A stretch of 64,000 nucleotides of DNA from Candidatus Latescibacterota bacterium (lineage in GTDB: Bacteria; Latescibacterota; UBA2968), in assembly GCA_965208125.1 (NCBI GenBank), contig OZ242320.1:4864001-4928000 (forward strand), read 5' to 3'. The position numbers and the translations under genes are program-made. Shown in pieces: positions 6,778 through 29,344 of the stretch. The number at the start of each line of letters is the position of its first letter. Within the stretch, counting starts at the first letter, position 1. The notes beneath the pieces were generated by a model. The model worked only from the letters and a program-made list of their open reading frames with translations. It was not told the origin of the DNA and ran no database searches.

Positions 6778-8154
6778 ATGGCACAAGAAAATCGACCAAA
6801 TGTGTTGTTCATTTCGTTTGATGATTTAAATCACTATGTGGGATTTTTGGATCGCGCCCCAAATGCTGTGACCCCTCATTTTAATCGGTTGGCCGAGCGA
6901 TGTATAGTATTTGAACGCACGTATTGTCAAGCGCCGATTTGCAATCCCTCGCGGGCGAGTTTGATGAGTGGGTTGCGGCCATCCACTACGGGTGTTTATA
7001 ACAATCGACAGCCGCTCAGATTTTCGGAAGCGGGGAGAAATTGTGTGACATTGCCGCAGCACTTTCGGCAAAATGGCTATTTTACAACGGGCAGTGGCAA
7101 GGTATATCACGGCAAATTTCCCGATCCAATGTCGTGGGATTCTTATGTACCGAGTTTGTTTAATCAGTCGCATTCCGGCGCAGAACCCGATCATCATCCC
7201 GTAAATGGCATGAAGGGTATGGGCAATCTGGACTGGGGACCGATGGATGTTACCGATGAAGATATGCAGGATTACAAGGCTGTGAGTTATTGTGTTGAGC
7301 AATTGGGGACCAGGCATGACAAACCCTTCTTTTTGACGTGTGGTTTTAAGCTGCCGCATTTGATGTGGCATGCGCCGAGGAAGTATATAGAGGCTTATGA
7401 TCTGAATGATCTCCATTTGCCCGAGACACTGGAGAATGACCTGGACGATGTTCCCGAGATCGCGCAGCGATGGGCCAATCAAAAACCGCATGCACGTATC
7501 GTGGAAGCGGGGCAATGGAAGGAAGCGATTCGGTGTTATCTGGCGTGTATCAGTTTTGTCGATACGCAAATTGGACGATTGATAGATGCGCTGGATGCAA
7601 GTGCTTATGCAGAGAATACAGCAATTGTTTTGTGGGCAGATCACGGGTGGCATTTGGGCGAAAAAAGCCATTGGAAAAAGAGTACGTTGTGGGAAGAGGC
7701 CACGCGCGTACCCTTGCTTATTTCAGCCCCGGGTTATTCGCCTGGCCCCTGTTCAGAGCCAGTGGGATTGATCGATATTTATCCCACGCTAATTGCGTTG
7801 TGCGGCTTGCCCGTCCGCGAGGAATTGGAAGGCCGAAGCTTGGTGCCACTGATGGAAAATCCCAATCGCAACTGGCCCTTTCCCGCAATCACCACACATG
7901 GGCGTGGCAATCATGCGGTGCGGTCCGAGCGATGGCGATATATCCGTTATGCAGATGGATCAGAAGAGCTTTACGATCACAGACATGACGAGATGGAATG
8001 GAAAAATCTGGCGCATAGCCCTATGTTGGGCGAGGTTAAAGAACTTCTATCACAGTGGTTGCCAGAGAATAATGCGCCGGATGCTGAGATTGTTGAATGG
8101 CCTGATGAGACAGAGAGTTATCGATCGAGGATCGAGGCGATGATGGACGAATAG
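6778..8154 (+). CDS. Formylglycine-type sulfatase (iduronate-2-sulfatase/choline-sulfatase-like)
   Basis: PNVLFISFDDL, CNPSRASLMSG (CxPxR), GKVYH, ADHGWHLGEK; no signal peptide apparent. Confidence 0.9.
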   Translation: MAQENRPNVLFISFDDLNHYVGFLDRAPNAVTPHFNRLAERCIVFERTYCQAPICNPSRASLMSGLRPSTTGVYNNRQPLRFSEAGRNCVTLPQHFRQNGYFTTGSGKVYHGKFPDPMSWDSYVPSLFNQSHSGAEPDHHPVNGMKGMGNLDWGPMDVTDEDMQDYKAVSYCVEQLGTRHDKPFFLTCGFKLPHLMWHAPRKYIEAYDLNDLHLPETLENDLDDVPEIAQRWANQKPHARIVEAGQWKEAIRCYLACISFVDTQIGRLIDALDASAYAENTAIVLWADHGWHLGEKSHWKKSTLWEEATRVPLLISAPGYSPGPCSEPVGLIDIYPTLIALCGLPVREELEGRSLVPLMENPNRNWPFPAITTHGRGNHAVRSERWRYIRYADGSEELYDHRHDEMEWKNLAHSPMLGEVKELLSQWLPENNAPDAEIVEWPDETESYRSRIEAMMDE

Positions 8155-10287: not shown

Positions 10288-11154
10288 ATGGACGTTTATG
10301 AGAAGTATTTTTTTGATGTGAATGGATATCTGGTAGTGGAGGATATTTTGTCTCCCGATCAGGTCGCAGCCCTCAATGAGGCGATTGATCACAATCGGGA
10401 CAATATTCGAATTCGCGAGGGGGAACTAAGGTTGTCGGGTGGCGCGGGTCAACACGGTAGTGAGGTTTCTATCGCACTGGAAGGATCACATGGACGAGGG
10501 GATATCGGAAGTATTTTGAGATGGCCGAAACCGTGGTGTCAACCCTTCCGAGATTTGCTATCCCATTTGCCAACGATGCGCTATATGCTCGATATGATCG
10601 GCAATGGGTTTCGCTATGGCAATGCCAATGGAATTAGCATGACCAAAGGGGCAGAAGGGCATTTGCTTCACGGCGGCGGTGGGTTTTTGGGCGGACATAT
10701 GTATTTCTGTAAGGATGGGAAGATGTGGAATAATCTGATTGCTGTGTGTTATCAGCTTGCCGATGTCAATCCCGGCGACGGTGGGTTTGTGTGTATTCCC
10801 GGCAGTCACAAGGCAAATTTTGAATGTCCGACGGATGTGCGCCGAATGGAGCGAGATTTGGGGTGTTTTAAACATATTCCCATGAAGGCGGGATCAGCGG
10901 TAATTTTTACCGAGGCATTGACACATGGCGCAATACCCTGGACTGCGGACCACGAACGACGGACCCTGTTGTATCGCTATGCCGCGGGGGGGTATGTCAA
11001 CCCGCCCAGTGGCAATGATCCCGCGAAATATGCGCCGTTTATGGATGAGTTGACACCGCTCCAGCAGGCTATTATGCAACCCCCACACAATGCGGGGCGT
11101 ATAGATATGGTCGCGCTGATCGAGGCAGAGAAAGAAGCAAGTGCTAAAAACTGA
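10288..11154 (+). CDS. PhyH-family Fe(II)/2-oxoglutarate enzyme
   Basis: YFFDVNGYLVVEDILS, GGFVCIPGSHK, AGSAVIFTEALTHG, ERR; proximal motif is H-G-G; GAGGAGG RBS. Confidence 0.85.
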   Translation: MDVYEKYFFDVNGYLVVEDILSPDQVAALNEAIDHNRDNIRIREGELRLSGGAGQHGSEVSIALEGSHGRGDIGSILRWPKPWCQPFRDLLSHLPTMRYMLDMIGNGFRYGNANGISMTKGAEGHLLHGGGGFLGGHMYFCKDGKMWNNLIAVCYQLADVNPGDGGFVCIPGSHKANFECPTDVRRMERDLGCFKHIPMKAGSAVIFTEALTHGAIPWTADHERRTLLYRYAAGGYVNPPSGNDPAKYAPFMDELTPLQQAIMQPPHNAGRIDMVALIEAEKEASAKN

Positions 11155-11224: not shown

Positions 11225-11869
11225 ATGAATACAAATTTCACTCGCGAGGTCGTTTTTTCGGATGATACGGCAATGGAGCGGGCGGGGATGTCCAGGCGCG
11301 ATTTTATCAAAGGGATTATTGCCACTGGCGCGTCCATTTCTGCGATGGGATATGTGTTTGGAGGCTGCGCGGGTGATATGGGTAGCGCGCCGGGTGCGGT
11401 TGAGCGGCTCATTTCTCTCAATGTAAATGGTCGCGTGCGTCGCGTTGATGTTTTGCCGCAGGAAACGCTGGCGATGACGTTGCGGTACAAACTGGGGCTT
11501 ACGGGCACAAAGCTGGGGTGCGACCGGGGTGAATGCGGTGCGTGTACAGTGCTGGTCGATGATGTGGCGATGTATTCGTGTTCGACTTTAACCCACCGCG
11601 TTCGAGGCCGTTCGGTTGTTACTGTTGAGGGCCTTGAAGGCGAAGATGGCGCGTTGCATCCGGTTCAGCGGGCATTTATTGAAGAACTGGGACCTCAGTG
11701 TGGATTTTGCACGCCGGGCCAGGTGATGTCTGCGGTGGCACTGCTGAAGATCAATCCGGATCCAACCCGAGAAGAGGCGCGAGTTGCAATGTCTGGAAAT
11801 CTTTGTCGCTGTGGTGCTTACGATAATTATCTGAACTCAGTAATGCGCGCAGCAGAGGAGGCTTCTTAA
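11225..11869 (+). CDS. Xanthine-dehydrogenase-family 2x[2Fe-2S] subunit with Tat signal (PaoA/YagT-like)
   Basis: SRRDFIKG twin-arginine motif and hydrophobic stretch ending FGGC; GCDRGECGACT, QCGFCTPG, NLCRC. Confidence 0.92.
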   Translation: MNTNFTREVVFSDDTAMERAGMSRRDFIKGIIATGASISAMGYVFGGCAGDMGSAPGAVERLISLNVNGRVRRVDVLPQETLAMTLRYKLGLTGTKLGCDRGECGACTVLVDDVAMYSCSTLTHRVRGRSVVTVEGLEGEDGALHPVQRAFIEELGPQCGFCTPGQVMSAVALLKINPDPTREEARVAMSGNLCRCGAYDNYLNSVMRAAEEAS

Positions 11870-14266
11870 ATGGCATATCAATTGATTGGCAAGGATTTTA
11901 CGCCGCCAGATGTGGCGGCAAAGGTTACGGGTAAGGCAAAATACGCCGAGGATTTTCGCGCCGAAGGCATGGTGTTTTGTCGCTTGCTCCTGAGCACAAT
12001 GCCCCATGCGCGCGTTCGCAATATTGATGTGTCCGAAGCGATGAAGATGAAGGGCGTTTTGGGTATTTTAACGGCTGATGATGTGCCCGAGCAAAACGCG
12101 CCGAACAATCCCATTTTGACAAATAATCCCCATTATGTAGGGGACCCGATTCTGGCAGTTGCCGCGCTCGACGAGCAGACGGCACAGGATGCGATTGATA
12201 AAATTGCGATTGATTATGAACCCCTTCCCTTTACGCTCGATCCTCTGGAGAGTCTCTATCCCGGTGGCACAAATGCCCGCGAAGAAGGCAATGTTCGCAA
12301 CCGGCGTTCGGGAAGCGAGACAATCAAATGGACTGCTGGCGATTTTGTCGATAAGGATGTGTGTCCGACGGGCAAACCCGCAACTGAATGGTCTTATGGT
12401 GAAGTTGATCAGGGGTTTGAAAATGCAAAATTGATCGTGGATGAAAGCTTTGTCACGGCAAATAATCCGCATCATTCGATGGAACCGCGGTCGTGTATGG
12501 CCTTATGGGAAAACGGCAAGTGTTTCGTATATGGCGCAACGCAAAGCCAGAGTCGTCCCACGCGCGATCTTGCCCGTCTCCTGGGGATGGAGTCTGAAGA
12601 TCTGGTTTATATCGCGGAATACTGCGGAGGTGGCTTTGGCTCCAAAGGCACGGCGTATCCCGTGATGGCTATTCCGCCGCTTATGTCCAAAAAAGTTGGG
12701 CGCCCCGTGATGATGCGTATCAGTCGCGCGGAAGAGTATTTCATCGGGTCTGCGCGCCACGGTTTTCAGGGGCGAATTAAAATTGGTTTTCGCAGCGATG
12801 GGCGGATCAGTGCGCTGGATATGTACGTGATTCAGGAGAATGGTGCTTATCGCGGCGGTGGGGATTGGACCGCTGCTGGCGATGCGGTTTCGCTGGTTTA
12901 TACGCCCGAAGCCATGCGCTTCCGGGGGATTCCCGTATATACCAATACGCCGATTAGAGGAGCGCAGCGCGGTCCTGGACAAAATCAGATCGCCTGTGTA
13001 GTTGAACCCCTGCTCGACAAGGCCGCCGAGGAACTGGGCATTGATCAACTGGCGATTCGGCGCATTAATGCACCCGATAACGATTCGAAATACGGGCGCA
13101 GGCAAGGACCTGTGACGAGTGTTTATATGCGCGAGGCACTGGATAAAGGCGGGAAGGCTTTTGATTGGGCAGGGAAAAAGCAAAAAAGCCGTCAGAAGAG
13201 TGGCTCAAAGGTTATTGGTGTGGGGATTGGACAGGCTTATCACGCCGCGGGTTCAAATGGTTATGATGGTCTGGTGCGCCTGACGCCAGAGGGCAAGTTG
13301 CACATTCATTCGGGTGTTGGCAATCTCGGCACCTTTTCGCACACTGCAACCTCTCTCGCAGCCGCCGAAGTGTTGACGTGTAAATGGGAAAATTGCGTGA
13401 TTGAACGGGGCGACAGCCGCCGTCATTTGCCGTGGAACCACGCACAGTGGGGGAGCAATACCTCGTTTACGATGACGCGCACGAATTATGTCGCGGCTAT
13501 GGATGCGAAGAACAAATTGCTGGAGATTGCGGCAATGGATCTGGGAGGCTCTCCCGGCGATTACGATCTGGCTGATGAGCGGGTTGTGCATAAGGCGGAC
13601 AAATCCAAAAGCATGGGATTTGCAGATGCGGCAAAACGCGCAATTGAACTGGGGGGTAAGTACGACGGCCATGAAGCTCCCGAAGATATTCACGACATGA
13701 CAAAAGCCTCAGTGGCTGCACTTGCGGGGACGGGTTTGATCGGTGTTGCCAAAGACAATCTGAAGCGCGAGGGCGTTGTCCCTGCGATGGCTGTCGGATT
13801 TATCGAGATTGAATTGGATCTGGAGACTGGTAAATACGAGATTTTGGATTACGTGGGAGCTGCAGAGTGCGGCACAGTGCTGCATCCACAAGGTCTGGAG
13901 ACGCAGATCAAAGGCGGCGCAGTTATGGGTTTTGGTCTGGCTGCGCTGGAGCGGTACGTATATGATCCGCAAAACGGCCTTCCCGCAAATACAGTGCTCT
14001 ATCAATGTAAGCCGCCGTCGTATCTCGATGTCCCATCTGAGATGAAGACCGAGGTGGTCGATATCGCCGATCCTCAAAATCCAGTTGGTGCTAAGGGAAT
14101 AGGCGAGCCTGTGCAGGGTTGTGCCGCTGCCGCGCTTTTGTGTGCGATTTCAGATGCGCTGGACGGGCATTATTTTAATCGCATGCCAGTGACGACCGAT
14201 CATATTGTCAATGCAGCCGCAGGTCGCGAACAGTCGTATAAGGCGCTGCAAGTAAATACGGTGTGA
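11870..14266 (+). CDS. Xanthine-dehydrogenase-family molybdopterin-binding subunit (PaoC/YagR-like)
   Basis: KVTGKAKYAED, GGGFGSK, AQRGPG, QIKGG, KGIGEP catalytic Glu. Confidence 0.92.
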   Translation: MAYQLIGKDFTPPDVAAKVTGKAKYAEDFRAEGMVFCRLLLSTMPHARVRNIDVSEAMKMKGVLGILTADDVPEQNAPNNPILTNNPHYVGDPILAVAALDEQTAQDAIDKIAIDYEPLPFTLDPLESLYPGGTNAREEGNVRNRRSGSETIKWTAGDFVDKDVCPTGKPATEWSYGEVDQGFENAKLIVDESFVTANNPHHSMEPRSCMALWENGKCFVYGATQSQSRPTRDLARLLGMESEDLVYIAEYCGGGFGSKGTAYPVMAIPPLMSKKVGRPVMMRISRAEEYFIGSARHGFQGRIKIGFRSDGRISALDMYVIQENGAYRGGGDWTAAGDAVSLVYTPEAMRFRGIPVYTNTPIRGAQRGPGQNQIACVVEPLLDKAAEELGIDQLAIRRINAPDNDSKYGRRQGPVTSVYMREALDKGGKAFDWAGKKQKSRQKSGSKVIGVGIGQAYHAAGSNGYDGLVRLTPEGKLHIHSGVGNLGTFSHTATSLAAAEVLTCKWENCVIERGDSRRHLPWNHAQWGSNTSFTMTRTNYVAAMDAKNKLLEIAAMDLGGSPGDYDLADERVVHKADKSKSMGFADAAKRAIELGGKYDGHEAPEDIHDMTKASVAALAGTGLIGVAKDNLKREGVVPAMAVGFIEIELDLETGKYEILDYVGAAECGTVLHPQGLETQIKGGAVMGFGLAALERYVYDPQNGLPANTVLYQCKPPSYLDVPSEMKTEVVDIADPQNPVGAKGIGEPVQGCAAAALLCAISDALDGHYFNRMPVTTDHIVNAAAGREQSYKALQVNTV

Positions 14267-14281
14267 GAAGGGGGAAATGAG

Positions 14282-15271
14282 ATGCTCAAAGATATGATGG
14301 CTAATTTTGAGTTGTATCAGCCCGCGACGATAGATCACGCGCTGAATTTAATGGATCGCTATGGCGATGACGGTTGGGTTCTGGCAGGCGGTCAGGATAG
14401 TTTTGACTGGTTTAAGGACCGCGCCAAGAAGCCCCAAGCAGTTATCGATATTAACGGTATTGATGATTTGCATGGGATACGGGAAACAGCCGATGGGATT
14501 GAAATTGGGGCGTTGACCACGCTGACAGAGATTGAGACAAGTGCCCTGATTAAAGAGAAATACGGCGTGTTGGCCGATGCTGCGCGACATGTTGCCAGTC
14601 CACAAATTCGCAATGCGGGAACGATTGGGGGCAATGTCTGTCAGGATACGCGGTGCTGGTATTATCGGTATGGTCTGGATTGTTATCGGGCGGGCGGGAA
14701 TACATGTTATGCCGATACGCCCGAGGGAATTGACCGCGAACATTGTCTTTTTGGGGCAGATCGGTGTATCGCTGTGTCGCCTTCAGATACTGCACCCGCA
14801 CTTGTTGCCCTCGATGCGCGTATGGTGGTTGTAAATGGCGATGGGGAAAAAGAGGTGCAGGCAGAGGACTTTTTTATTGGTCCAGATGTGGATATTATGC
14901 GCATGACGATTTTGCAACCGGGTGATTTGCTCAAGTCGATTGTGATTCCCAACACATGGGCAGGCGCGCGTTTTTATTTTGAAAAGGTGGCCGAAAGGAA
15001 CACATGGGATTTTGCGCTGGTCAATATTGCCTCTGCGATGAAGGTGGATAACGACGCGATTGCCGATATCCGAATAGCCTGCGGCGGTGTTGCCTGTGTG
15101 CCGCTGCGCTTGACGGTTGTGGAAGAGGTGGTCAAGGGCAGTCCCCAAAATGGCACGTCTGCCGATCTCGCTGCGAGTGCGGCAAGCCGAGGCGCCACGC
15201 CGCTGAATTACAATGGGTTTAAGATTCCTCTGATGGAGAGTCTGGTCAAACGGGCAATACGAGAGAGTTGA
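14282..15271 (+). CDS. Xanthine-dehydrogenase-family FAD-binding subunit (PaoB/YagS-like, with [4Fe-4S] insert)
   Basis: LAGGQD, IRNAGTIGGN, Cys-rich insert RCWYYR...CYRAGGNTC...CIAVSPSD. Confidence 0.92.
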   Translation: MLKDMMANFELYQPATIDHALNLMDRYGDDGWVLAGGQDSFDWFKDRAKKPQAVIDINGIDDLHGIRETADGIEIGALTTLTEIETSALIKEKYGVLADAARHVASPQIRNAGTIGGNVCQDTRCWYYRYGLDCYRAGGNTCYADTPEGIDREHCLFGADRCIAVSPSDTAPALVALDARMVVVNGDGEKEVQAEDFFIGPDVDIMRMTILQPGDLLKSIVIPNTWAGARFYFEKVAERNTWDFALVNIASAMKVDNDAIADIRIACGGVACVPLRLTVVEEVVKGSPQNGTSADLAASAASRGATPLNYNGFKIPLMESLVKRAIRES

Positions 15272-15426
15272 TGGATATTTTTCGATATACCAGCGATGCC
15301 TGGGGACAGCGGGTTTTAGAAGGTCTTTCGTGGGACCTGATCGGATATTTTGCAGGTGCTGGCGTTGTGTTTATTGTTTTGCATGCGGGTTATATGCACT
15401 TTTTTGTGAAAAAAAACGGTCAATGA
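15271..15426 (+). CDS. 51-aa single-TM protein (missed by ORF track); possibly the N-terminal part of the downstream cytochrome b
   Basis: MDIFRYTSDAWGQRVLEGLSWDLIGYFAGAGVVFIVLHAGYMHFFVKKNGQ*; TGATG overlap upstream and ATGA overlap downstream. Confidence 0.75.
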   Translation: MDIFRYTSDAWGQRVLEGLSWDLIGYFAGAGVVFIVLHAGYMHFFVKKNGQ

Positions 15427-16049
15427 ATGCTTTGCAGAGACATACCCTCGCTACCCGAATCAATCACTGGTTGATGGCAGCGTGTATTATAGCCCTGTTG
15501 CTGACTGGTTTCTTGCCGATTTTGGGGATCAAGTTTGCGTGGGTGACGCTGCACTGGGTTTCTGGGGTGATTTTTACTGCTTCTGTTCTGTTTCACATTA
15601 TTTATGCCCTGACCCGGCAAGACTGGCGGTCTATGTGGATCGCACGAGGAGAATTTGCAGATGTTCTTTCCTCGTTGTCGGGTTCGATCAAGGCTTTGAA
15701 AGTATCGCCCGGCAAATACTGGCTGATGCAAAAAGTTTATCACCATATTGTGGCGATTATTAGTCTGATTGTCTGTGTGACGGGTATTTTGATGTTGTTT
15801 AAAATAGATTCCCCTTTCTGGACGCGCGATCCTTATGTTTTTTCAGGTGAAAGCTGGGGTATTATTTATGTTTTGCACGATTTTTCGGGTCTGTGTTTTA
15901 TTCCGCTGATTATGATGCATGTTTATTTTGCGATACGTCCAGAGAAACTTTTTTATACGCGATCGATGATTAAAGGATGGATTACAGACGAAGAATATCG
16001 CGCACATCACGATCCAGAGAAGTGGGATGCTAAAAGAAAAGGCGCATAA
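15423..16049 (+). CDS. Di-heme cytochrome b subunit (FdnI / Ni-hydrogenase cyt b family)
   Basis: RHTLATRINHW, TLHW, PGKY..MQK.YH, LHD, MHVYFA..P, SMIKGW; four TM helices; ATG 15423 preferred over track start 15330. Confidence 0.85.
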   Translation: MNALQRHTLATRINHWLMAACIIALLLTGFLPILGIKFAWVTLHWVSGVIFTASVLFHIIYALTRQDWRSMWIARGEFADVLSSLSGSIKALKVSPGKYWLMQKVYHHIVAIISLIVCVTGILMLFKIDSPFWTRDPYVFSGESWGIIYVLHDFSGLCFIPLIMMHVYFAIRPEKLFYTRSMIKGWITDEEYRAHHDPEKWDAKRKGA

Positions 16050-16463: not shown

Positions 16464-18974
16464 ATGGTTCAAATTCTACGTAAGGATCATCCCCGGCTGT
16501 ATCATCCAGTCGATGATCCGGATTACAGGTTCGACCCGCCGGAGGATGCGGCGAGAAAACGAATCCTTAAGAATATTCTCGCAGATTGCGAGATTTTTTA
16601 TTTTCAGCGTCCGTGGAAACGGATTCCCGAACGGCCTCACAGTCCACATCCGTACCACCAACTATACCTGACGTTCTATACGGGGATGCACGCAACTGCG
16701 CTGATAGAGCATTACGCGTTCGCCTGGCGGCTGACGGGGGATCCGCGCTGGTTGAAACGGGCGAGAGATTGGTTGCGCGCGGCGGTGGAATGGGAGCATA
16801 GTGACAAGATAGAAGAGCATTTTTATACGGCCAACCGATATATGCAGGCGTTTGCGCTGGCGCTGGATCTGCTCGACAAAGCGTTGCCCGACGTAGAAAA
16901 AAAACAGGCGACCGCGTGTCTGGTTCAGATGATGAGCCGCTGGTGGCCAGATGTGGAGCGGAACCGATACTCATCGGATGGACGACACCACGCCGTGGTT
17001 GACAACGGGCATTTTGGCGTGGCGGCTTTGTATTTGTTGGGAAAACATCCCGATGCAGAAGCCTGGTTGTCGGCCGTGATCGATCGGTTTCGCAGCGGGG
17101 TGATGCCCTATGGCTGCGGGCGAGACGGCGCACCGGGCGACGGGCCTGCGTTCTGGCCGTGGGAAAATTTGTGGATGCTTCACTTCGCCGACGCGCTGCA
17201 CAATGTGACGGGGGAAGATCTGTATAAGGCGTTTCCGAAACGATTGGAGCGGCCTTTGACGTGGTTTCGGTATCATCTGGCACCGCCGCCAGTGATCGAA
17301 GACAGGCTGTATTACCCGGAAAATTCAAATGTTATTTCGGGCAGCCAGCTAAATGCGTGTTCGGTGCCCCTCCTTCGGCTGGCGCAGGAGGCTGGAGACG
17401 CCGAGATGCGGGACATAGCACTCGGCGATCCGAGACTGGGACGGCTCTACCGGTTTGGGATGGGAGTGAAGGGTACAACGGCGGAATGTATGATCGCATA
17501 CGCTCCGTACGCTTATTGTTATTGCGATCCTGAGTTCCGGCCGTCGAGTCGCAAGATTGTATTGCCGCTTTCAAAGAAATTTACCCGAATGCACTACGGA
17601 GAGACCGGATTGCTGCGCAGCGGATGGGACAGGGACGCTGTGGTCTGTTGCGTGTCGGGATACAAAGGCGGGAGCGCACATGGGTTTATGAACTTACACG
17701 TGCAATGGGGCGGATATCCGATTCTGAAGACGATTTCTGCGGAAGAGTCCCAGCCGGTGGCCTGTGGGAGTCTCCCGTTCACAGGCGGGCAAAACGAAAT
17801 CGTCGCATTTTTGAGGCAACTGGATACAGCAGCACCGTTTGAACGGTTGCGCGTGCGGTCCATTCGAACAGATCATGAATACTGGCTGTTGAAAGGGACT
17901 TTTCCGATCCTTGTAACAGCACTGAGACGCCGGAGACGAGGTGTAAGAATGATGCGAAATAGGGGGGAGGGATTCGTGCGATTGAATGGTCGTGATTATC
18001 TGCAGTACGAAAGAGCACCTTATTTTAATCCCAGGGCAGGTGAATTGCGAATGCGCTTCCGGTTAAACGGCGAGAGTAGAAAAGAAGGACCAGAGGTTTT
18101 GTTTAATACGGGAATCGGTGTGGGAAGGGTCATGGGAAGCCGGGTAAATAATTATTCGCTGGCAATAATGGACGGGGACGCGCTGACATTTGTTGTGCAG
18201 AGCCAGCGAAATACGTCGGTAGAGGTCGTCTCATCGATGAAAATTGAACCCGACAGATGGCATGATGCGGTTATCCGATGGGGCGGGTTCAACCGGTCGG
18301 GAGATAATCCGTTTATTGAAATCGATGTGGATGGGTGCAGGAACAGGTGCGACGACCGCGCGATTTTCGGTGAACTGGATCTGGATTCGCAGAATCTGCA
18401 GTCGCGTGCGGAACCGAGGACATTTTACATCAAGTCGAATACGGTGCTGGCGTTTGGGGGCGCAGTGCAGATGCCTGGAACGGGGGTGAAATGCGACCTT
18501 GACAGGGTAGATCTGAAATGCCCAGGACGCAGGCAGTTGCTGTTGGATTTTGAGACGGATCTGGGTCCAGAAACCGGAAATGGCGCGCTGGGCTGGAAGT
18601 TGAATCCGGTAGATTTGAGGCAGGTCCGGGGAAAACAGGCGCATTTTGGTGCGGGTGGACGATCAATCAATGCGTTGCTTCTTTACGGAGAGGATGCCTA
18701 TTTTGAGAGGGAGGAGGTGCCTTTCGCGCCTTCTGGACTGGCGGCGGGAAGTCTGACGAGTTTTGTCCCAGGGGCGCGGGATGCGAACACGCGGGTGCTG
18801 CTATCGACCCTCGGAGATATTCTGGTTTTTGCTTTTGCAGAGCGCCAGGCAAATGCGCGTGTAGTACAGAACGAGAATGGATTCGAGATTGGTGTTGAGA
18901 AAGAGCGGTACGGGTTTGACGCGAATACAAGGGGAGAAGAGATCCTCACCCTGCGCTCAGCCGTAATGGAGTAA
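16464..18974 (+). CDS. Heparinase II/III / alginate-lyase-like (alpha/alpha toroid) protein with LamG-like insertion
   Basis: AFAWRLTGDPRWL, GRDGAPGDGPAFW, LLRSGWD, AHG segments; PDRWHDAVIRW...IEIDVDG LamG-like segment. Confidence 0.55.
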   Translation: MVQILRKDHPRLYHPVDDPDYRFDPPEDAARKRILKNILADCEIFYFQRPWKRIPERPHSPHPYHQLYLTFYTGMHATALIEHYAFAWRLTGDPRWLKRARDWLRAAVEWEHSDKIEEHFYTANRYMQAFALALDLLDKALPDVEKKQATACLVQMMSRWWPDVERNRYSSDGRHHAVVDNGHFGVAALYLLGKHPDAEAWLSAVIDRFRSGVMPYGCGRDGAPGDGPAFWPWENLWMLHFADALHNVTGEDLYKAFPKRLERPLTWFRYHLAPPPVIEDRLYYPENSNVISGSQLNACSVPLLRLAQEAGDAEMRDIALGDPRLGRLYRFGMGVKGTTAECMIAYAPYAYCYCDPEFRPSSRKIVLPLSKKFTRMHYGETGLLRSGWDRDAVVCCVSGYKGGSAHGFMNLHVQWGGYPILKTISAEESQPVACGSLPFTGGQNEIVAFLRQLDTAAPFERLRVRSIRTDHEYWLLKGTFPILVTALRRRRRGVRMMRNRGEGFVRLNGRDYLQYERAPYFNPRAGELRMRFRLNGESRKEGPEVLFNTGIGVGRVMGSRVNNYSLAIMDGDALTFVVQSQRNTSVEVVSSMKIEPDRWHDAVIRWGGFNRSGDNPFIEIDVDGCRNRCDDRAIFGELDLDSQNLQSRAEPRTFYIKSNTVLAFGGAVQMPGTGVKCDLDRVDLKCPGRRQLLLDFETDLGPETGNGALGWKLNPVDLRQVRGKQAHFGAGGRSINALLLYGEDAYFEREEVPFAPSGLAAGSLTSFVPGARDANTRVLLSTLGDILVFAFAERQANARVVQNENGFEIGVEKERYGFDANTRGEEILTLRSAVME

Positions 18975-19005
18975 CGGATATCTCCCTGTATAGATGGAGT
19001 ATATA

Positions 19006-19039
19006 AAGGTCGTGAATAGATGACTCACGGTCTTTTTTT
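19006..19039. terminator. Terminator between convergent genes
   Basis: AAGGTCGTGA...TCACGGTCTT stem followed by T7. Confidence 0.6.
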
Positions 19040-19051
19040 AAATATTGCCTA

Positions 19052-19882
19052 TCAGGGGCACTCGCCGCGTGTGAGTCTGCTCTGGATGTCGTCTAATACA
19101 GCCGGCACGTCCCAGATGCCATCGACGACATAGTGTGCACCTGCCTGGTGCATGCGCTGATATACAGTCTCGAGTTGTGTTTGCAGGACTTCGGGATCAA
19201 GGCTATTGATTTCTTCTTCGTTTAGACCGATTTCATTTCCTGTTTTTGCAAGGCCAATAGTCCACATACCGGCATTGAGGCCCTCTTCGATACCGGGGAT
19301 CGTGTCATCGACTTTAACACAGGCTGCAAAGGGGTACACGCCCAGTTGCAGGGCATTTTGGACACACATCCAGGGGGCTGGGCGGCCTTCGGGGACGTCG
19401 GTCGCACATACGGTTGCGTCGGGTTCGTAACCTCGTTTTTTGGCTTCTTCCTGCAATAGTGCCATCATTTCGCCTGTATATCCAGTAGTTGATCCTATTT
19501 TTAATCCGCGCTTGCGAAACTCGGCAACTGCTTCCAGTGTACCGGGAATCAAGTCGGCGTATTCAGCCAGACAACTCAGTTGCAAGGGCACAAATGCTTC
19601 AAACATCTCATCAATATCCGATTCCTCCGGTGGTCGATTGTAGGTATCTTCCCAGCGCTGGTGTACAGATTCGATTTGAGATATCTTTCGGATGTGGACT
19701 TTTTTATGCGCTCCCATTGGCGCGCGCGCCTCGGCCATGCTGATAGGCACTCGCATGCGTTCGTACACCTGGCGGAAGACCACAGCCGGCGCGTAACATC
19801 CGTAATCCATCGTGGTTCCCGCCCAATCTAAAAAAATGGCTTTTAGCGCACCGCGATATGTACGTCGAAAATTAAAATCCAT
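19052..19882 (-). CDS. phnX: Phosphonoacetaldehyde hydrolase (phosphonatase)
   Basis: HAD motif DWAGTTMDYG, Schiff-base Lys region PMGAHKKVHI, STTGYT, GRPAPWM, KVDDT..GIEEGLNAGMW. Confidence 0.95.
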   Translation of the reverse strand: MDFNFRRTYRGALKAIFLDWAGTTMDYGCYAPAVVFRQVYERMRVPISMAEARAPMGAHKKVHIRKISQIESVHQRWEDTYNRPPEESDIDEMFEAFVPLQLSCLAEYADLIPGTLEAVAEFRKRGLKIGSTTGYTGEMMALLQEEAKKRGYEPDATVCATDVPEGRPAPWMCVQNALQLGVYPFAACVKVDDTIPGIEEGLNAGMWTIGLAKTGNEIGLNEEEINSLDPEVLQTQLETVYQRMHQAGAHYVVDGIWDVPAVLDDIQSRLTRGECP

Positions 19883-19914
19883 TTTCTGTCCTTTCTGATT
19901 TATTGGCGAAATGA

Positions 19915-21063
19915 GTGAATCGTCTCGTGAAACAGATTACCTGCATGGCACCCGGGGCTATTGAGACTGTGCCGTCTTTGTTAGATGACAGAGCCGTGCG
20001 GTCTGTTTTTGTGGTGGCTGATCGCACAGCCTACGATAAATCCGGTGCAAAAATATATCTGAAATCCGCATTACAGGGGCGCATCCATACCATCTTTGAT
20101 GATTTTGCACCTAATCCCAAATACGCCGATGTGATACGCGGTGTCAAATTATGGCACGCACATCCATGTGATATGATGATTGCCATAGGTGGCGGATCTG
20201 CAATTGATTTGGCCAAGCTCATTGGCATTTGCGGTACACATCGCGGGCAATACCGCGAACTTCTTACAGGGAATATACCGATTCGGGATAAGGTCGCACC
20301 ATTAATCGCCATTCCCACCACAGCGGGTACGGGGAGTGAAGCGACACATTTTGCTGTGGTTTATGTCGAGGAACAAAAATATTCCGTTGCACACGCCAAT
20401 GTGTTGCCCGACTACGCAATTATCGATCCCAATCTAACGGCCAATTTGCCACCTTCTATTACCGCACATACTGGCCTGGACGCACTGTCACAGGCTGTTG
20501 AATCTTTGTGGAGTGTGAATGCAACCGCGCAATCGCGTGTTTTTGCAAGCGAGGCTCTGGAACTGGTGCTCGATAATCTCGAGGCCGCTGTTCACCATCC
20601 CACGCCCGATGTACGCGCTAATATGTGTCGCGCAGCCCATCTATCTGGCAAAGCGATCAATATCAGCAAGACCACAGCGCCTCACGCGATTTCCTATACG
20701 CTCACATCTCAATTTGGCGTGCCTCACGGTTTGGCTGTGGCTCTGACATTGGGTGCCCTTTTAATATACAACAATGGGGTAGTCAGTGGTGATTGTTGGC
20801 ATCCCAAAGGTGTTGCTCAAGTTCAGAAAGACATCAGAGAGATCAACAGGCTGATAGGGGTTGAGAACTCTGAAGAAGCGAGAAAACACATTGATGATCT
20901 CATCAGCGCCATTGGTTGTCCGACCCATCTGCGACAGGTCGGTGTGGCTACCGATGCAGATCTGGAAATACTTGTGCAGAATGTCAATACGGAACGTCTA
21001 AAAAACAATCCCCGCGCCCTGTCGCAGTTTGAGCTAAGATGGATACTCAAAGAAATCCATTAG
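19915..21063 (+). CDS. Iron-containing alcohol dehydrogenase, phosphonoacetaldehyde reductase (PhpC/FomC-like) type
   Basis: PNP, GGGSAIDLAK, PTTAGTGSEATHFAVVY, DALSQAVESLWS, AINISKTTAPHAISY, VPHG, ERLKNNPR; start GTG 19915 or 19927. Confidence 0.85.
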   Translation: MNRLVKQITCMAPGAIETVPSLLDDRAVRSVFVVADRTAYDKSGAKIYLKSALQGRIHTIFDDFAPNPKYADVIRGVKLWHAHPCDMMIAIGGGSAIDLAKLIGICGTHRGQYRELLTGNIPIRDKVAPLIAIPTTAGTGSEATHFAVVYVEEQKYSVAHANVLPDYAIIDPNLTANLPPSITAHTGLDALSQAVESLWSVNATAQSRVFASEALELVLDNLEAAVHHPTPDVRANMCRAAHLSGKAINISKTTAPHAISYTLTSQFGVPHGLAVALTLGALLIYNNGVVSGDCWHPKGVAQVQKDIREINRLIGVENSEEARKHIDDLISAIGCPTHLRQVGVATDADLEILVQNVNTERLKNNPRALSQFELRWILKEIH

Positions 21064-21152
21064 AGGTATTATGGCAGAGGCTTTAAGAGAGGTCGAGACA
21101 GCACGCGATCGCCCAGATACGGTCACTCCGAGCAGTGGGTAAGATACGCTTT

Positions 21153-22556
21153 TTAGACAGTAAATTCTGGCCGGCCGAGAGCGTCAGTGGAGTTTTGTCG
21201 CTGGTAGATGGGGATCTCACCGCCAGCGTCTTCGAGAATACGGTGTTTTGCCCGTTTGATTCTATCTGCTGCTCTTTCGGCAATGTTCTGGGTGCAGTCC
21301 GGGTCTGATTCCAGGTCGAAGACGCGTGGACCAGAAAAGTCCCCCTGAGAAAAGAACCATGTGGTATTGTCTTTGTACCAGACGGAATTGCCGTATCGGC
21401 ATGTTAGATAGTCTCGCTCGCTGAAGGTTCCCGAGGATTCAACGATGGGTAGCAGGCTCTGTCCGTCGATTTGTCCAATCGGTGAGACGCCGGAAATGTC
21501 GAGCACTGTTGCGGGTATATCGAGGGTATAGACAAAGGCGTCGGATATGCTTCCGACGCCTTTGTTTTGTGGGTGTCGCAAGATCATCGGGATGCACATG
21601 GTACCCGGATACATGTAGTCTGCGGGTTTGCCAATTATGCCTTCGGCATTGTCGGCGAAATTTGTGCCGTGGTCGCTCAGAAAAATGACCATGGTATTGT
21701 CGTGCAATCCCACTCTGTCGATTGTATCGACCAGCCGTCCAAACCAGGTATCCACCATTGTGACGAGTCCGGCGTAGTTGGCGCGAATAGAAGCGAGTCG
21801 ATCTTCGTAGTCGGGATTGGCGCTCAAGGGACCATAAGGTACATTGAGACAGATGGGTACTCTATCTTCGCGGCTACCATACAGATCGTAGTAGTGGAGC
21901 GGTGCTTCCCATGTTTCGTGGGGGGTGAAGCTATCGACGTAGAGATAAAAGGGTGCGTTTGAAGCGTTTTGCTCCAGAAACTCAATGGCAGCGCGAAACG
22001 TCCGCGCAGCGGGCCAGGTCTCTTCGGGACGCTGGGGTTGCACATTGACCAGGTGGGCGCGGATCAGATTCTGAGGCTGTCCTTCTCTGAGTTTATAGCA
22101 TTCGATCAATGCCGGGTCTGCTGCGGCTATGGCGCGATAGCGGTCCTCTGCCTGGCCGCGAATGAATTGCCATTGGCGGAAGCCCCGGATAAAATTCATT
22201 CCAGGGACAAAGTAATGGGGGACATCGGCAAAGAAACCGGTGTGATAACCAGCCTGGACCAGTGCTTCGGCGATTGTACCCTCATCACCCGACATGGGCT
22301 GCCATCCGGCGAGATAGACATTATCCCAGGGAACGGGACTATAGTCTTTGAAGGGGAAGGCTCTGCGACCGGTGTGAAGGGTTCGCCGCGTCGGAATGGT
22401 GGGCAGGCACTCGGGATGGGCATTGGTGAAGCGCACGCCCTCTTCGGCAAATTGGTCGAGGTTTGGCGTGTGGATCCAGTCGTTTCCATAAGCGCCCAGG
22501 AATGAGGTGCGAAACGTATCGGCCACTATAACGACGATGTTCATAGGGTCTGACAT
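21153..22556 (-). CDS. Sulfatase-fold (alkaline phosphatase superfamily) hydrolase with Thr at the nucleophile position
   Basis: NIVVIVADTFR, TPNLD, PTIPTRRTLHTGR, PHE.W, SDHG. Confidence 0.85.
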   Translation of the reverse strand: MSDPMNIVVIVADTFRTSFLGAYGNDWIHTPNLDQFAEEGVRFTNAHPECLPTIPTRRTLHTGRRAFPFKDYSPVPWDNVYLAGWQPMSGDEGTIAEALVQAGYHTGFFADVPHYFVPGMNFIRGFRQWQFIRGQAEDRYRAIAAADPALIECYKLREGQPQNLIRAHLVNVQPQRPEETWPAARTFRAAIEFLEQNASNAPFYLYVDSFTPHETWEAPLHYYDLYGSREDRVPICLNVPYGPLSANPDYEDRLASIRANYAGLVTMVDTWFGRLVDTIDRVGLHDNTMVIFLSDHGTNFADNAEGIIGKPADYMYPGTMCIPMILRHPQNKGVGSISDAFVYTLDIPATVLDISGVSPIGQIDGQSLLPIVESSGTFSERDYLTCRYGNSVWYKDNTTWFFSQGDFSGPRVFDLESDPDCTQNIAERAADRIKRAKHRILEDAGGEIPIYQRQNSTDALGRPEFTV

Positions 22557-25587: not shown

Positions 25588-25677
25588 TAACTTCTTAGAA
25601 AAATTCAAAAGCATCCGCAGATGGATGGGTAATGAACGCAGACAAAATCTGTGGTTTTAATAAAGAGGAGGAAAATT

Positions 25678-26553
25678 TTGAACGCATTTGATTATGAAGC
25701 ACCCCAGTCTGTAGATGAGGCTATTTCTCTGCTCAGCGAGGGAAATGGCAATGTCGGCATTCTGGCGGGCGGTACGGACTTGATCGCGCAGTTGAAGGAG
25801 GGTCGCAAGATCGATTTGATGCTCGATCTCAAGCGGATCCCCGAAGCAACTGCGTTGAGTTTTGATGAGGACAGCGGTTTGAGTATTGGCGCGGCAACAC
25901 CGTGTTCCCAAATTTACGGTTACGATGTTGTCCAAAGCCGTTATCCCGCGCTTGTAGATTGTACTTCGCTCATCGGTTCTATTCAGATTCAAAATCGCGG
26001 ATCTATTGGGGGCAATTTCTGCAATGCCTCGCCTGCAGCGGACACCCCACCTGCTGTTATTGTTCTGGGTAGCACATGTCGTATTGCGGGGCCAAATGGC
26101 ACGCGTGAAGTAGCCGCAGAAGATTTCTTTACCGGTCCCGGACAAAGTGTTCTTCAATCCGGTGAGTTTCTCATTTCTATTCACGTGCCAACTCCTGCTG
26201 CCAATTCGGGAGCGTTTTTCCTGCGATTTATTCCGCGCAATGAAATGGATATCGCAGTCGCCAATGCTGCGGCATCTGTGGTTTTGGACAGCGAGAAAAC
26301 GACCATTCAAGAGGCGCGGGTGTCAATTGGAGCTGTCGCCCCCACCCCCTTGCTCGTTGCCGATGCGGGCGCAGCACTTGAGGGGAAATCGGTGGATGAT
26401 GAAGACGCTATAGAAGCGGCGTGCGCGGCATCGCGCGCAGCAGCCAGGCCAATTAGCGATATGCGAGGTACTATCGAACAGCGGGTTCACCTGTCCGGCG
26501 TTTTGACGCGCCGCGCCATTCAGGGAGCCATTCAGAGAGCAAAGGAGTCTTAA
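25678..26553 (+). CDS. Xanthine-dehydrogenase/CoxM-like FAD-binding subunit
   Basis: LAGGTDL, IQNRGSIGGNFCNASPAAD, PISDMRG; TTG start after AGAGGAGG. Confidence 0.92.
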   Translation: MNAFDYEAPQSVDEAISLLSEGNGNVGILAGGTDLIAQLKEGRKIDLMLDLKRIPEATALSFDEDSGLSIGAATPCSQIYGYDVVQSRYPALVDCTSLIGSIQIQNRGSIGGNFCNASPAADTPPAVIVLGSTCRIAGPNGTREVAAEDFFTGPGQSVLQSGEFLISIHVPTPAANSGAFFLRFIPRNEMDIAVANAAASVVLDSEKTTIQEARVSIGAVAPTPLLVADAGAALEGKSVDDEDAIEAACAASRAAARPISDMRGTIEQRVHLSGVLTRRAIQGAIQRAKES

Positions 26554-26557
26554 TCGC

Positions 26558-27034
26558 ATGCCAGGAAAAGTTCACGTTACAACGACAATTAATGGAGAAT
26601 CGGTCGAGTTTTTGTGCGAACCTCGGCAGACAATTCTCGAAGTTTTGCGGGATCAACTCGATCTTACGGGCACGAAAGAGGGTTGCAGCAATGGCAACTG
26701 CGGCGCGTGTAGCATACTGGTCAATGGAGAGGTTATCGATGCCTGCCTGATGATGGGTGCCGAAGCCGAGGGACAGGAAATTACGACTATCGAAGGTGTT
26801 GCAAGTGCCGATGGTTTGCATCCTCTTCAGCAGAAATTTCTCGAACACGCAGCCCTTCAGTGCGGCATTTGCACACCGGGCTTTATTGTGGCCGCCAAGG
26901 CATTGCTCGATCAAGAGTCTAATCCTTCGGAAGAACGCATTCGGTTATACTTAGCGGGGAATTTGTGCCGTTGTACGGGGTATGACAAAATCGTTCGCGC
27001 GGTGCAAGACGCCGCGTCTGAAATGACCGAATAG
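26558..27034 (+). CDS. CoxS-like 2x[2Fe-2S] subunit
   Basis: GCSNGNCGACS, QCGICTPG, GNLCRCTGY; no Tat signal. Confidence 0.93.
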   Translation: MPGKVHVTTTINGESVEFLCEPRQTILEVLRDQLDLTGTKEGCSNGNCGACSILVNGEVIDACLMMGAEAEGQEITTIEGVASADGLHPLQQKFLEHAALQCGICTPGFIVAAKALLDQESNPSEERIRLYLAGNLCRCTGYDKIVRAVQDAASEMTE

Positions 27035-27049
27035 GGAGGTGATCCCATA

Positions 27050-29344
27050 ATGGCGACAAAAACAGAAGATTATCTGGGGATTACGGATTACAAAGTTATT
27101 GGCACCAGTCCGATACGGCACGATGGCGTCGATAAAGTCGTCGGTCGAGCAAAATACGGCGCAGATATCGATATGGCGGGTATGTTGCACGGGGCAGTTG
27201 TGCGCAGCCCGCACGCGCATGCACGGATCAAATCGATAGATACGAGCAAGGCAGAAGCGTTTGCAGGTGTAAAAGCCGTGATCACGGTTGAAGACCTGCC
27301 ATTGCAAGAAGACAAAATTGAAGACCTGGGTGAAGGCGCTGCCAATCTCCAGCATCTGCGCGCAAATGTACTGGCCGATGGCAAGGTATTGTACCACGGG
27401 CATGCAGTGGCTGCCGTTGCGGCAACAGATATTCATACGGCGCAAGAAGCTGTCGATTTAATCGATGTCGAATACGAGGTATTGCAACCCGTTCTAACTG
27501 TCCAAGAAGCCATGCAAGAGGACGCGCCTTTGCTTCTGGAAAACCAGACCACTGAGTCGCTGGGCGAAGATACGGGACAAAAAAGCAATGTGTGTACCCA
27601 TTTTCGCCATGAATTGGGCGACGTGGAGAAGGGATTTGCAGAGGCGGAACTCGTCATTGAGCGAGAATTTGATACTGCGACGGTTCACCAGGGGTATATT
27701 GAGCCGCAAAATGCCACAGCCTTGTGGAGTGCCGACGATCAGATCACGGTGTGGTGCAGCACGCAGGGCGCATTTACAGTGCGTGAACAGACCGCGCAGA
27801 TATTGGATGTGCCGGTTTCACAGGTCAAAGTCGTTCCCATGGAAATTGGCGGTGGATTTGGAGGTAAAATTCGGATTTATCTCGAACCTCTGGCCGCGGT
27901 TCTGTCGAGAAAGACGGGACGCCCTGTCAAGATGGTCATGAGCCGCACAGAAGTTTTGCTGGCTACTGGACCAACCGCTGGCTCTTTTATCAAGTGTAAA
28001 ATGGGGGTTGACAAAGCGGGTAAGATCGTCGCTGCATATGCGTATATGGCGTATGAGTCGGGTGGTTTTCCCGGTAGTTGGGCAGCTCCAGGAGCTATGT
28101 GCATTTTCGCGCCCTACAATATTCCCAATGTGTTGATTGACGGGTACGAGGTGCTGGTCAATAAACCGCAGACCATGGCTTATCGGGCACCCGGCGCGAC
28201 CAATGCCGCTTTTGCTTCAGAGACGATTATCGACGAGCTTTGCGAACAATTGGATGTTGATCCACTCGAGTTTCGGCTCAAAAACTCTGCCAGAGAAGGC
28301 ACGCGGCGTGCAGATGGTCCGGTTTATCCGCGAATTGGTAACGAGGAATGTGTCAAAACGGCTCTGTCTTCAGAGCACTACGCGACGCAACTCAGTGGTA
28401 AAAACCGCGGGCGCGGGATTGCGTCGGGTTTCTGGTTCAATGTGGGTTTGAAGTCGAGTGCTGCTGCCAGCGTAAATTCCGATGGCACGGTCAGCCTCGT
28501 CGAAGGTTCTACGGATATTGGCGGAACTCGAACATCTATTGCAATGCAATTGGCCGAAGTACTCGGCATTAGGGCCGAAGATGTCAAGCCACAGGTCGTT
28601 GATACGGATTCTATCGGCGATACAGATGTGACTGGGGGAAGTCGCACGACATTTGCTACAGGGTGGGCGGCCTATCAGTGCGCCCTGGATATCAAGGAGC
28701 AATTGATTGAGCGTGCGGCAAAATTGTGGGAGATCTCGACTGATGATGTGGCTTTTAACGATGGCACATTTTCTTCATCTGATTCTTCTAAAACCATCTC
28801 GTTCAAAGAGTTGGCCGGAATGCTTGACGAAACAGGTGGCCCCGTTATGGGTAGAGCTACCGTAAATCCGTCCGGCGTGGGCGGTGCTTTTGCGGTCATG
28901 ATTGTCGATATTGAGGTCGATACCGAAACGGGTAAAGTGGAGATTTTGCGCGTCTCTATGATCCAAGATGCCGGCAAGGCTGTTTATCCCAGTTATGTCG
29001 AAGGGCAGATGCAAGGGGGCACAGCACAGGGTATTGGCTGGGCACTCAACGAAGAATACGCCTATAATCGGGATGGCCTTTTGACGAATGCGAGTTTGCT
29101 CGATTATCGGATGCCCACATGCCTCGATTTGCCCATGATTGAAGCCCATATCGTCGAAGTACCAAATCCCGGTCATCCCTACGGTGTGCGAGGGGTGGGG
29201 GAAGTGCCGATTGTTCCGCCTGCTGCAGCAATTGCAAATGCGATTTACGATGCTGTGGGCGTGAGAATGACGAATTTGCCCATGTCACCCGGTGAAGTTC
29301 TCAAATCGTTGTGGGCAAAAAATGGGGGAAATGGGACAGGCTGA
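27050..29344 (+). CDS. Xanthine-dehydrogenase-family molybdopterin-binding subunit (not form I CODH)
   Basis: GGGFGGK, AYRAPG loop, TGGSR, EGQMQGG, RGVGE. Confidence 0.92.
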   Translation: MATKTEDYLGITDYKVIGTSPIRHDGVDKVVGRAKYGADIDMAGMLHGAVVRSPHAHARIKSIDTSKAEAFAGVKAVITVEDLPLQEDKIEDLGEGAANLQHLRANVLADGKVLYHGHAVAAVAATDIHTAQEAVDLIDVEYEVLQPVLTVQEAMQEDAPLLLENQTTESLGEDTGQKSNVCTHFRHELGDVEKGFAEAELVIEREFDTATVHQGYIEPQNATALWSADDQITVWCSTQGAFTVREQTAQILDVPVSQVKVVPMEIGGGFGGKIRIYLEPLAAVLSRKTGRPVKMVMSRTEVLLATGPTAGSFIKCKMGVDKAGKIVAAYAYMAYESGGFPGSWAAPGAMCIFAPYNIPNVLIDGYEVLVNKPQTMAYRAPGATNAAFASETIIDELCEQLDVDPLEFRLKNSAREGTRRADGPVYPRIGNEECVKTALSSEHYATQLSGKNRGRGIASGFWFNVGLKSSAAASVNSDGTVSLVEGSTDIGGTRTSIAMQLAEVLGIRAEDVKPQVVDTDSIGDTDVTGGSRTTFATGWAAYQCALDIKEQLIERAAKLWEISTDDVAFNDGTFSSSDSSKTISFKELAGMLDETGGPVMGRATVNPSGVGGAFAVMIVDIEVDTETGKVEILRVSMIQDAGKAVYPSYVEGQMQGGTAQGIGWALNEEYAYNRDGLLTNASLLDYRMPTCLDLPMIEAHIVEVPNPGHPYGVRGVGEVPIVPPAAAIANAIYDAVGVRMTNLPMSPGEVLKSLWAKNGGNGTG

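Follow-up and report, generated by a model that had tools for sequence, protein, structure and literature searches.

A divergent phnX and PhpC-type dehydrogenase gene pair as a predicted unit for 2-hydroxyethylphosphonate use in Latescibacterota

What could a dehydrogenase of a type known from phosphonate biosynthesis be doing beside a hydrolase that consumes the same aldehyde? The question is raised by a 64,000-nucleotide stretch of DNA from Candidatus Latescibacterota bacterium (contig OZ242320.1 of assembly GCA_965208125.1), hereafter referred to as the window, which comprises positions 4,864,001-4,928,000 of a genome that consists of one 5.75 Mb contig and is 96.4% complete, and whose nearest relatives are Latescibacterota metagenome-assembled genomes. 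Within this window, phnX, which encodes phosphonoacetaldehyde hydrolase, lies head to head with the gene of a PhpC-type alcohol dehydrogenase (ADH) of the iron-dependent family (Fe-ADH). PhpC and FomC reduce phosphonoacetaldehyde to 2-hydroxyethylphosphonate (2-HEP, or HEP) in biosynthetic clusters containing pepM and ppd, and PhnX is normally fed by PhnW, the transaminase of 2-aminoethylphosphonate (AEP). Marine dissolved organic matter and phosphonoglycans both contain HEP, and to our knowledge C-P lyase was its sole documented catabolic fate before 2026.

The divergent pair of phnX and the ADH gene probably constitutes a self-contained unit for the use of HEP, a reading reached by computational comparison. 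The PhpC-type dehydrogenase would oxidize HEP with nicotinamide adenine dinucleotide (NAD+) to phosphonoacetaldehyde, which is a thermodynamically unfavourable step, and PhnX would then hydrolyse the C-P bond of phosphonoacetaldehyde irreversibly into acetaldehyde and phosphate. The irreversible second step would pull the oxidation of HEP forward, and the route as a whole would proceed without O2, C-P lyase or a transaminase. What we infer is the direction of flux as well as the substrate and cofactor, the entry of HEP and the regulation of the pair. An ADH running oxidatively and pulled by PhnX had been suggested by the first-pass annotation of this DNA, and the suggestion appears well supported by the clade of the ADH, its residues, the negative results across the genome and the co-inheritance of the two genes. 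This mechanism is the best-supported reading but had already been published for other bacteria (September 2026), and since it has been shown in vitro elsewhere, the pair opens no new question in this respect.

According to the main text of Piazza et al. (Protein Sci 2026; PMC13576164), the PhpC of Paraburkholderia fungorum oxidizes HEP with NAD+ in vitro, the addition of PhnX drives this oxidation on with the release of phosphate, and the dehydrogenase shows no appreciable activity on ethanol, isethionate or AEP. The same text describes degradative phpC clusters that contain only phnX or phnY-phnA, and no phnW, in Pseudomonadota, Bacillota, Fibrobacterota and Planctomycetota. The string "Latescibact" has zero occurrences in that main text, and the pair would thus extend the PhpC-PhnX route to Latescibacterota, an uncultured phylum that the main text does not name.

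The gene pair and the rest of the genome

The phnX gene (Table 1) matches the curated equivalog TIGR01422 with 336.3 bits against a cut-off of 220, over model positions 2-251 of 251, and is the sole match over this cut-off in the genome, which makes it a single-copy gene. Residues 12-268 of its product align with the solved Bacillus-type PhnX 2iof (E 4.7e-75), in which D12, C22, M49, K53 and H56 of chain 2iof_A correspond to D19, C29, M56, K60 and H63 of the window protein. We take the Asp of the DWAGT motif of PhnX to be the nucleophile of the haloacid dehalogenase (HAD) type and the Lys to be the Schiff-base residue, as in the Bacillus cereus enzyme, and D19 and K60 match these two residues. 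On profile and residue evidence, the gene is a full-score phnX.

The head-to-head arrangement of phnX with an Fe-ADH gene, described in the first-pass annotation, is confirmed by the open reading frames, whose divergent starts lie 32 bases apart when the GTG at 19915 is taken as the start of the ADH. In-frame alternatives occur at GTG 19927 and ATG 19945, and the spacer would measure 62 bases if the latter were the true start. A consensus promoter and terminator scan of positions 18800-21300 detected neither a sigma-70-like site nor any other signal in the spacer, and promoter-like sites were rarer in this region than in shuffles of it.

The search for other phosphonate genes covered the whole 5.75 Mb genome and not just the window. 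In these profile searches, the best matches stayed below the respective cut-offs for pepM (123.2 bits, cut-off 319.6), ppd (41.8 bits, cut-off 312.5), phnA (42.4 bits, cut-off 407.6) and phnY (395.1 bits, cut-off 635.7), as well as for phnW, which was represented by two models (TIGR02326, 77 bits against 400.8; TIGR03301, 103.7 bits against 360.8), and phnJ had zero matches. The observation that pepM, ppd, phnW, phnA and C-P lyase genes are missing from the window can be extended to the entire genome, and the check for pepM and ppd elsewhere, which had been proposed along with it, returned nothing over cut-off, likewise for phnW, phnA and phnJ. By these scores, no other phosphonate pathway appears to exist in the genome. 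The pair shares with the PhnW-PhnX pathway for AEP the final C-P cleavage by PhnX via phosphonoacetaldehyde, but differs from it in that a dehydrogenase would feed PhnX here and that no phnW over cut-off is found in the genome.

The dehydrogenase among its relatives

Relatives of the ADH were drawn from 120 listed homologues, 13 close loci and 79 loci found with a 29-sequence alignment; the neighbouring open reading frames of the collected loci were clustered, and recurrent clusters were named with NCBIfam, whereby any phnY-query match of less than 45% identity was treated as a generic aldehyde dehydrogenase. The clusters over cut-off included phosphonopyruvate decarboxylase (455 bits), phosphoenolpyruvate (PEP) mutase (393 bits) and phosphonoacetate hydrolase (510 bits), and a cluster of PhnY-like aldehyde dehydrogenases reached 600 bits, its best match, just below the cut-off of 636. 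A tree of 94 Fe-ADH rows was built by a quick IQ-TREE search, rooted at its midpoint and supported only by the SH-like approximate likelihood ratio test (SH-aLRT). Twelve loci had been set aside beforehand (nine redundant close relatives, one fused open reading frame and two truncated ones), and the characterised PhpC, FomC and DhpG reference sequences stand outside its 94 rows.

The window ADH falls inside a clade of 31 rows (SH-aLRT 99), of which 21 have genomic context, and 20 of these 21 adjoin genes of phosphonoacetaldehyde metabolism. Thirteen are accompanied by pepM and/or ppd, two Streptomyces loci among them, with matches over cut-off in L045 and L052; six are accompanied by phnX, namely the window, four close relatives and one Bacillota locus; and a Planctomicrobium locus (L043) shows the order phnA-phnY-ADH, with phnA over cut-off at 510 bits and a phnY-like gene at 600 bits. 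In the sole unlinked context row (L044), the ADH lies at the end of a contig. A second clade, composed of four proteobacterial rows (support 100), is likewise linked to phnX or to phnA/phnY, and no phosphonoacetaldehyde-gene neighbours were found in the other 56 locus rows of the tree. As to membership of the PhpC clade, a point on which the first-pass annotation allowed that its reading could fail, the ADH lies within a phosphonoacetaldehyde-linked Fe-ADH clade and carries its signature residues.

These residues can be compared with the P. fungorum PhpC, for which the main text of Piazza et al. gives D191, H195, H260 and H274 as metal ligands and K157, T256, Y264 and R349 as HEP contacts, and states that Tyr264 is strictly conserved among PhpC enzymes, with Phe in its place in sulfoacetaldehyde reductase (PMC13576164). 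The window ADH possesses K155, S157, D189, Q193, W199, T253, H257, Y261, T264, H271, R361 and N364, in which K155, T253, Y261 and R361 match the four HEP contacts, and D189, H257 and H271 of the metal site are kept, with Q193 as the fourth ligand. In the two phosphonate-linked clades, the Thr/Tyr/Arg/Lys substrate set is present in every one of the 35 rows, and the Thr/Tyr/Arg trio occurs in just 2 of the 59 rows outside them. A longer signature of seven residues (S157, W199, T253, Y261, T264, R361 and N364) is carried in full by 33 of the 35 linked-clade rows (29/31 and 4/4), the exceptions being one row with I for W199 and another with G for N364, and by none of the 59 rows outside the two clades.

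The domain composition of the ADH is that of the family (PF00465, 140.4 bits; PF25137, 106.7 bits), and both motifs quoted for it in the first-pass annotation, DALSQAVESLWS and AINISKTTAPHAISY, were found in its translation. NCBI gives the name phosphonoacetaldehyde reductase to six of the 120 listed homologues, which are 49-52% identical to the ADH. The top NCBIfam model is TIGR03405 (Phn_Fe-ADH/PsrA equivalog), on which the ADH scores 214.9 bits and misses the cut-off of 423.7; two paralogues from other parts of the genome reach 185 and 163 bits on it. Three tested rows of the proteobacterial clade pass it at 459-545 bits, and because the pepM-linked ADHs of the window's own clade reach only 181-200 bits, the cut-off covers only the proteobacterial subclade. 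Judged by these scores, the window ADH lies outside the TIGR03405 equivalog, a more restricted group than the PhpC type. The TIGR03405 score was accordingly rejected as a test of PhpC identity, given that pepM-linked relatives fall short of it too. TIGR03405 misses most PhpC-type enzymes, so surveys relying on it would undercount HEP catabolism.

Several known systems offer points of comparison. With the degradative PhpC and PhnX clusters described in the main text of PMC13576164, the pair shares a pf00465 dehydrogenase beside phnX and the lack of phnW (those clusters being pbfD-less as well), the Thr/Tyr/Arg/Lys residues, and, as predicted, a reversible oxidation pulled by an irreversible hydrolysis; it differs in that the assayed enzyme is proteobacterial, whereas the window ADH belongs to another subclade and has Gln rather than His as fourth ligand. 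The Streptomyces enzymes PhpC, FomC, DhpG and AglG (EC 1.1.1.309) represent the same family and reaction, and the pepM/ppd-linked Streptomyces ADHs of L056 and L061, which may be orthologues of the named enzymes, stand in the same 31-row clade at 31-33% identity to the window ADH. Unlike these reductases, which belong to pepM-ppd clusters making HEP, the window ADH resides in a genome without pepM/ppd and has a hydrolase as its partner. PbfG, a pf00107 zinc dehydrogenase that forms a second class of HEP dehydrogenases, has the same proposed role beside phnX or phnY-phnA, but its fold is unrelated and no such gene lies beside the window phnX. The closest solved structure is that of the Bifidobacterium kashiwanohense sulfoacetaldehyde reductase (6jko/6jkp, 158.9 bits), which has the same Asp/Gln/His/His metal site, the Asp/Gln pair included, but carries Phe opposite Tyr261 and belongs to another clade, whose genomic context differs.

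As a separate observation, one Fe-ADH clade of the tree (L083, L095, L104, L110, L074, L063 and L102; support 99) adjoins class-III aminotransferases. At the position of the PhpC Tyr, its members have Phe in four of seven cases and Tyr in three, and at the position of Arg361 they have Asn in five, Leu in one and a gap in one. The clade is probably sulfoacetaldehyde-reductase-like and would form a natural contrast group to PhpC.

Conservation, gain and loss of the pair

Among 168 Latescibacterota genomes searched (ADH-type threshold E <=1e-70), PhnX was found over cut-off in 32 and the ADH type in 27. Both genes are present in 16 of the 21 genomes of the window's genus (G000 among the 21), and in all 16 they are adjacent and divergent; the remaining five have neither, and no genome has one alone. 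The adjacency of the pair is beyond chance, being kept in a second genus and in each of the 15 further genomes of the first that carry both genes. That second genus is represented by G063, where the pair again lies head to head, with 66% identity for the ADH and 82% for PhnX, among helicase and HNH genes. A third lineage (G010; L126, 8135-11010) has the ADH followed by a phnX fragment of 151 residues, which covers positions 4-130 of the 251 in the model, and by a Mutator-family transposase, as if an insertion element had disrupted the pair.

With regard to the genomes lacking the pair, four of the five are complete and differ from the others in the whole block left of a rhodanese gene; owing to this break in synteny, they are uninformative on whether a three-gene unit exists. 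In the fifth, the flanking genes of a 126-residue protein (p126) and of a sulfatase-like protein lie about 16 bases apart, and the phnX-ADH segment is thus cleanly missing from that genome. On the evidence of gene content, phnX and the ADH behave as one two-gene unit of gain or loss. The conservation of adjacency, another matter left for checking by the first-pass annotation, likewise speaks for a pair whose members stay together and are gained or lost together.

Beyond the genus, 8 of the 11 genomes with this ADH type were examined. In three of them (G066, G070 and G071), which belong to two further genera, the ADH adjoins phnA. The loci L123 (6316-10397), L128 (7727-11618), L129 (6497-10664) and L132 (364-4532) display the order DUF72, ADH, phnA and PhyH-family dioxygenase, and no phnY was detected at these four ADH-phnA loci of other Latescibacterota genera. 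At L129, a threonine-dehydrogenase-like zinc ADH lies two genes from the PhpC-type ADH and is a candidate PbfG-like enzyme only.

Relatives at 90-97% identity are present in sponge metagenome and metatranscriptome libraries. In RNA libraries, phnX and the ADH are matched by contigs of 85-97% likeness, which come from four runs belonging to three studies, and one contig of 2364 bases spans both genes. As evidence of expression, these contigs were rejected, for they are assembled contigs of relatives and DNA can occur in such libraries; moreover, a contig bearing two divergent genes is not one transcript. In RNA library X19, a contig shows the join of that fifth, pair-less genome: it connects position 16431 to position 21160 with 18 other letters between them and thereby skips a DUF4962-like gene, phnX and the ADH. 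This library contains both the pair-skipping contig and the 2364-base contig with the pair, so both alleles coexist there.

A more far-reaching interpretation can be offered only tentatively, and it is rather doubtful: that the pair confers a strain-variable use of phosphonates limited to HEP, with HEP of the sponge holobiont as the selective agent, and that its presence or absence marks a niche split within one symbiont population. If the pair is indeed such a HEP-only unit, these Latescibacterota would have no AEP transaminase, phosphonoacetate or C-P lyase route. For sponge Latescibacterota, the accessible part of one earlier study lists phnW, phnY and phnA, and that part does not list phnX or phpC (PMC12993501).

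Alternative readings and the neighbouring genes

Several observations weigh against the reading of the pair as a HEP-using unit. The score of the ADH on TIGR03405 is nearly equalled by those of general Fe-ADH models (188-199 bits), and Gln193 stands where the P. fungorum PhpC has His. The assayed degradative PhpC appears to belong to the proteobacterial subclade, whose rows share about 30% identity with the window ADH; it was placed there because the paper calls PsrA highly similar to the assayed enzyme. phnX is nearby in just 2 of the 79 distant loci sampled across phyla, and three Latescibacterota genomes (G067, G097 and G098) have the ADH type without an adjacent phnX or phnA. Another source of phosphonoacetaldehyde may exist, as PbfD-type amine oxidases and PhnY*/PhnZ were outside the profiles searched. 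Lastly, no HEP transporter or regulator was recognised beside the pair, and no genome-wide search for phosphonate transporters was made. As for the metal ligand, Gln at 193 is found in 22 of the 31 clade rows, pepM-linked ones included, and therefore does not separate functions.

The first alternative makes the ADH an acetaldehyde reductase or ethanol dehydrogenase which clears the acetaldehyde formed by PhnX, with phosphonoacetaldehyde derived from AEP via an unrecognised transaminase or oxidase. Such an enzyme would agree with the nearly matching scores of the general Fe-ADH models, and its supply could come from class-V aminotransferases elsewhere in the genome, which reach 77-104 bits on PhnW models, or from oxidases of the PbfD type, which the profiles did not cover. 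The PhnW-like matches, however, are far under cut-off and lie 0.39 and 1.74 Mb away, and members of the ADH clade adjoin pepM/ppd, where acetaldehyde is no product. Together with the Thr/Tyr/Arg phosphonate-binding set of the ADH, which is missing from 57 of 59 unlinked Fe-ADHs, and the failure of the P. fungorum PhpC to use ethanol, as stated in the main text of PMC13576164, this makes the alternative improbable.

It is very improbable that the ADH works reductively, converting phosphonoacetaldehyde to 2-HEP for a cell-surface or secondary product while PhnX competes with it or serves in salvage. Such a pairing of a reductase with an enzyme that hydrolyses the same substrate would be futile; neither pepM nor ppd nor phnW is present over cut-off in the genome to supply phosphonoacetaldehyde, and no genes of HEP-attaching transferases lie beside the pair. 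These points must be set against the kinetics and equilibrium reported in the main text of PMC13576164, where both tested enzymes favour reduction and the equilibrium lies towards HEP, and against the inclusion of biosynthetic pepM-ppd clusters among the nearest clade members. Lockwood et al. (2022; PMC9381506) found about half of the phpC-bearing genomes to be without pepM and explained pepM-less phpC as the repurposing of AEP into HEP.

The chance that the ADH is a sulfoacetaldehyde reductase or isethionate dehydrogenase adjoining phnX by accident is negligible, for although its best solved relative (6jko/6jkp) is a sulfoacetaldehyde reductase according to the main text of Piazza et al. (PMC13576164) with the same Asp/Gln metal pair, and sulfatase-family genes lie near, Tyr261 of the ADH is Phe in 6jko, the Phe-bearing aminotransferase-linked clade is separate and has Asn instead of Arg at 361, the SarD model NF050025 gives just 121.2 bits (cut-off 700), and phnX and the ADH are co-inherited.

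Table 1. Coordinates of the gene pair and of other features in the window
Feature	Positions	Strand	Remarks
phnX, phosphonoacetaldehyde hydrolase, 276 residues	19052-19882	minus	TIGR01422 over cut-off
PhpC-type Fe/Zn alcohol dehydrogenase, 382 residues; predicted 2-hydroxyethylphosphonate dehydrogenase / phosphonoacetaldehyde reductase	19915-21063	plus	PF00465 and PF25137, clade, residues
Divergent intergenic spacer between both start codons	19883-19914	none	32 bases
Sulfatase-family protein (PF00884)	21153-22556	minus	T-I-P-T-R for sulfatase C/S-x-P-x-R
836-residue protein, weak DUF4962 (heparinase-like) match	16464-18974	plus	between p126 and phnX
Two xanthine-dehydrogenase/CO-dehydrogenase-type gene sets	11225-16049 region and 25651-29344		2Fe-2S, molybdopterin and FAD subunits
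Cytochrome b561-like membrane protein	15420-16049		after first dehydrogenase set
Second sulfatase-family gene	6778-8154		
DUF6785/DUF6784 protein	8183-10162		
PhyH-family dioxygenase	10288-11154		

The sulfatase-like gene next to the ADH is kept in 13 of 13 close relatives. Its product was considered as a phosphonate-ester hydrolase that would free HEP from phosphonoglycan esters, a role rejected as unsupported because one relative has this gene without the pair and G063 has the pair without this gene. Furthermore, none of phnX, ADH, phnA, phnY, pepM or ppd occurs within 8 kb of the family at any of 66 loci beyond the genus. This neighbour is outside the phnX-ADH system. When its product is aligned with solved sulfatases, Thr53 falls on the formylglycine position, and this Thr is invariant across 22 aligned sequences; a Thr nucleophile suggests a phosphoryl- rather than a sulfuryl-transfer enzyme. 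Homologues at 68-73% identity occur in Poribacteria, Gemmatimonadota, Chloroflexota and Candidatus Moanabacter.

On the other side of the pair, the DUF4962-like gene is present in 7 of 13 close relatives, and the segment around the pair therefore varies in content. The 126-residue protein, which has no family match, follows the first dehydrogenase set and the cytochrome b561-like gene.

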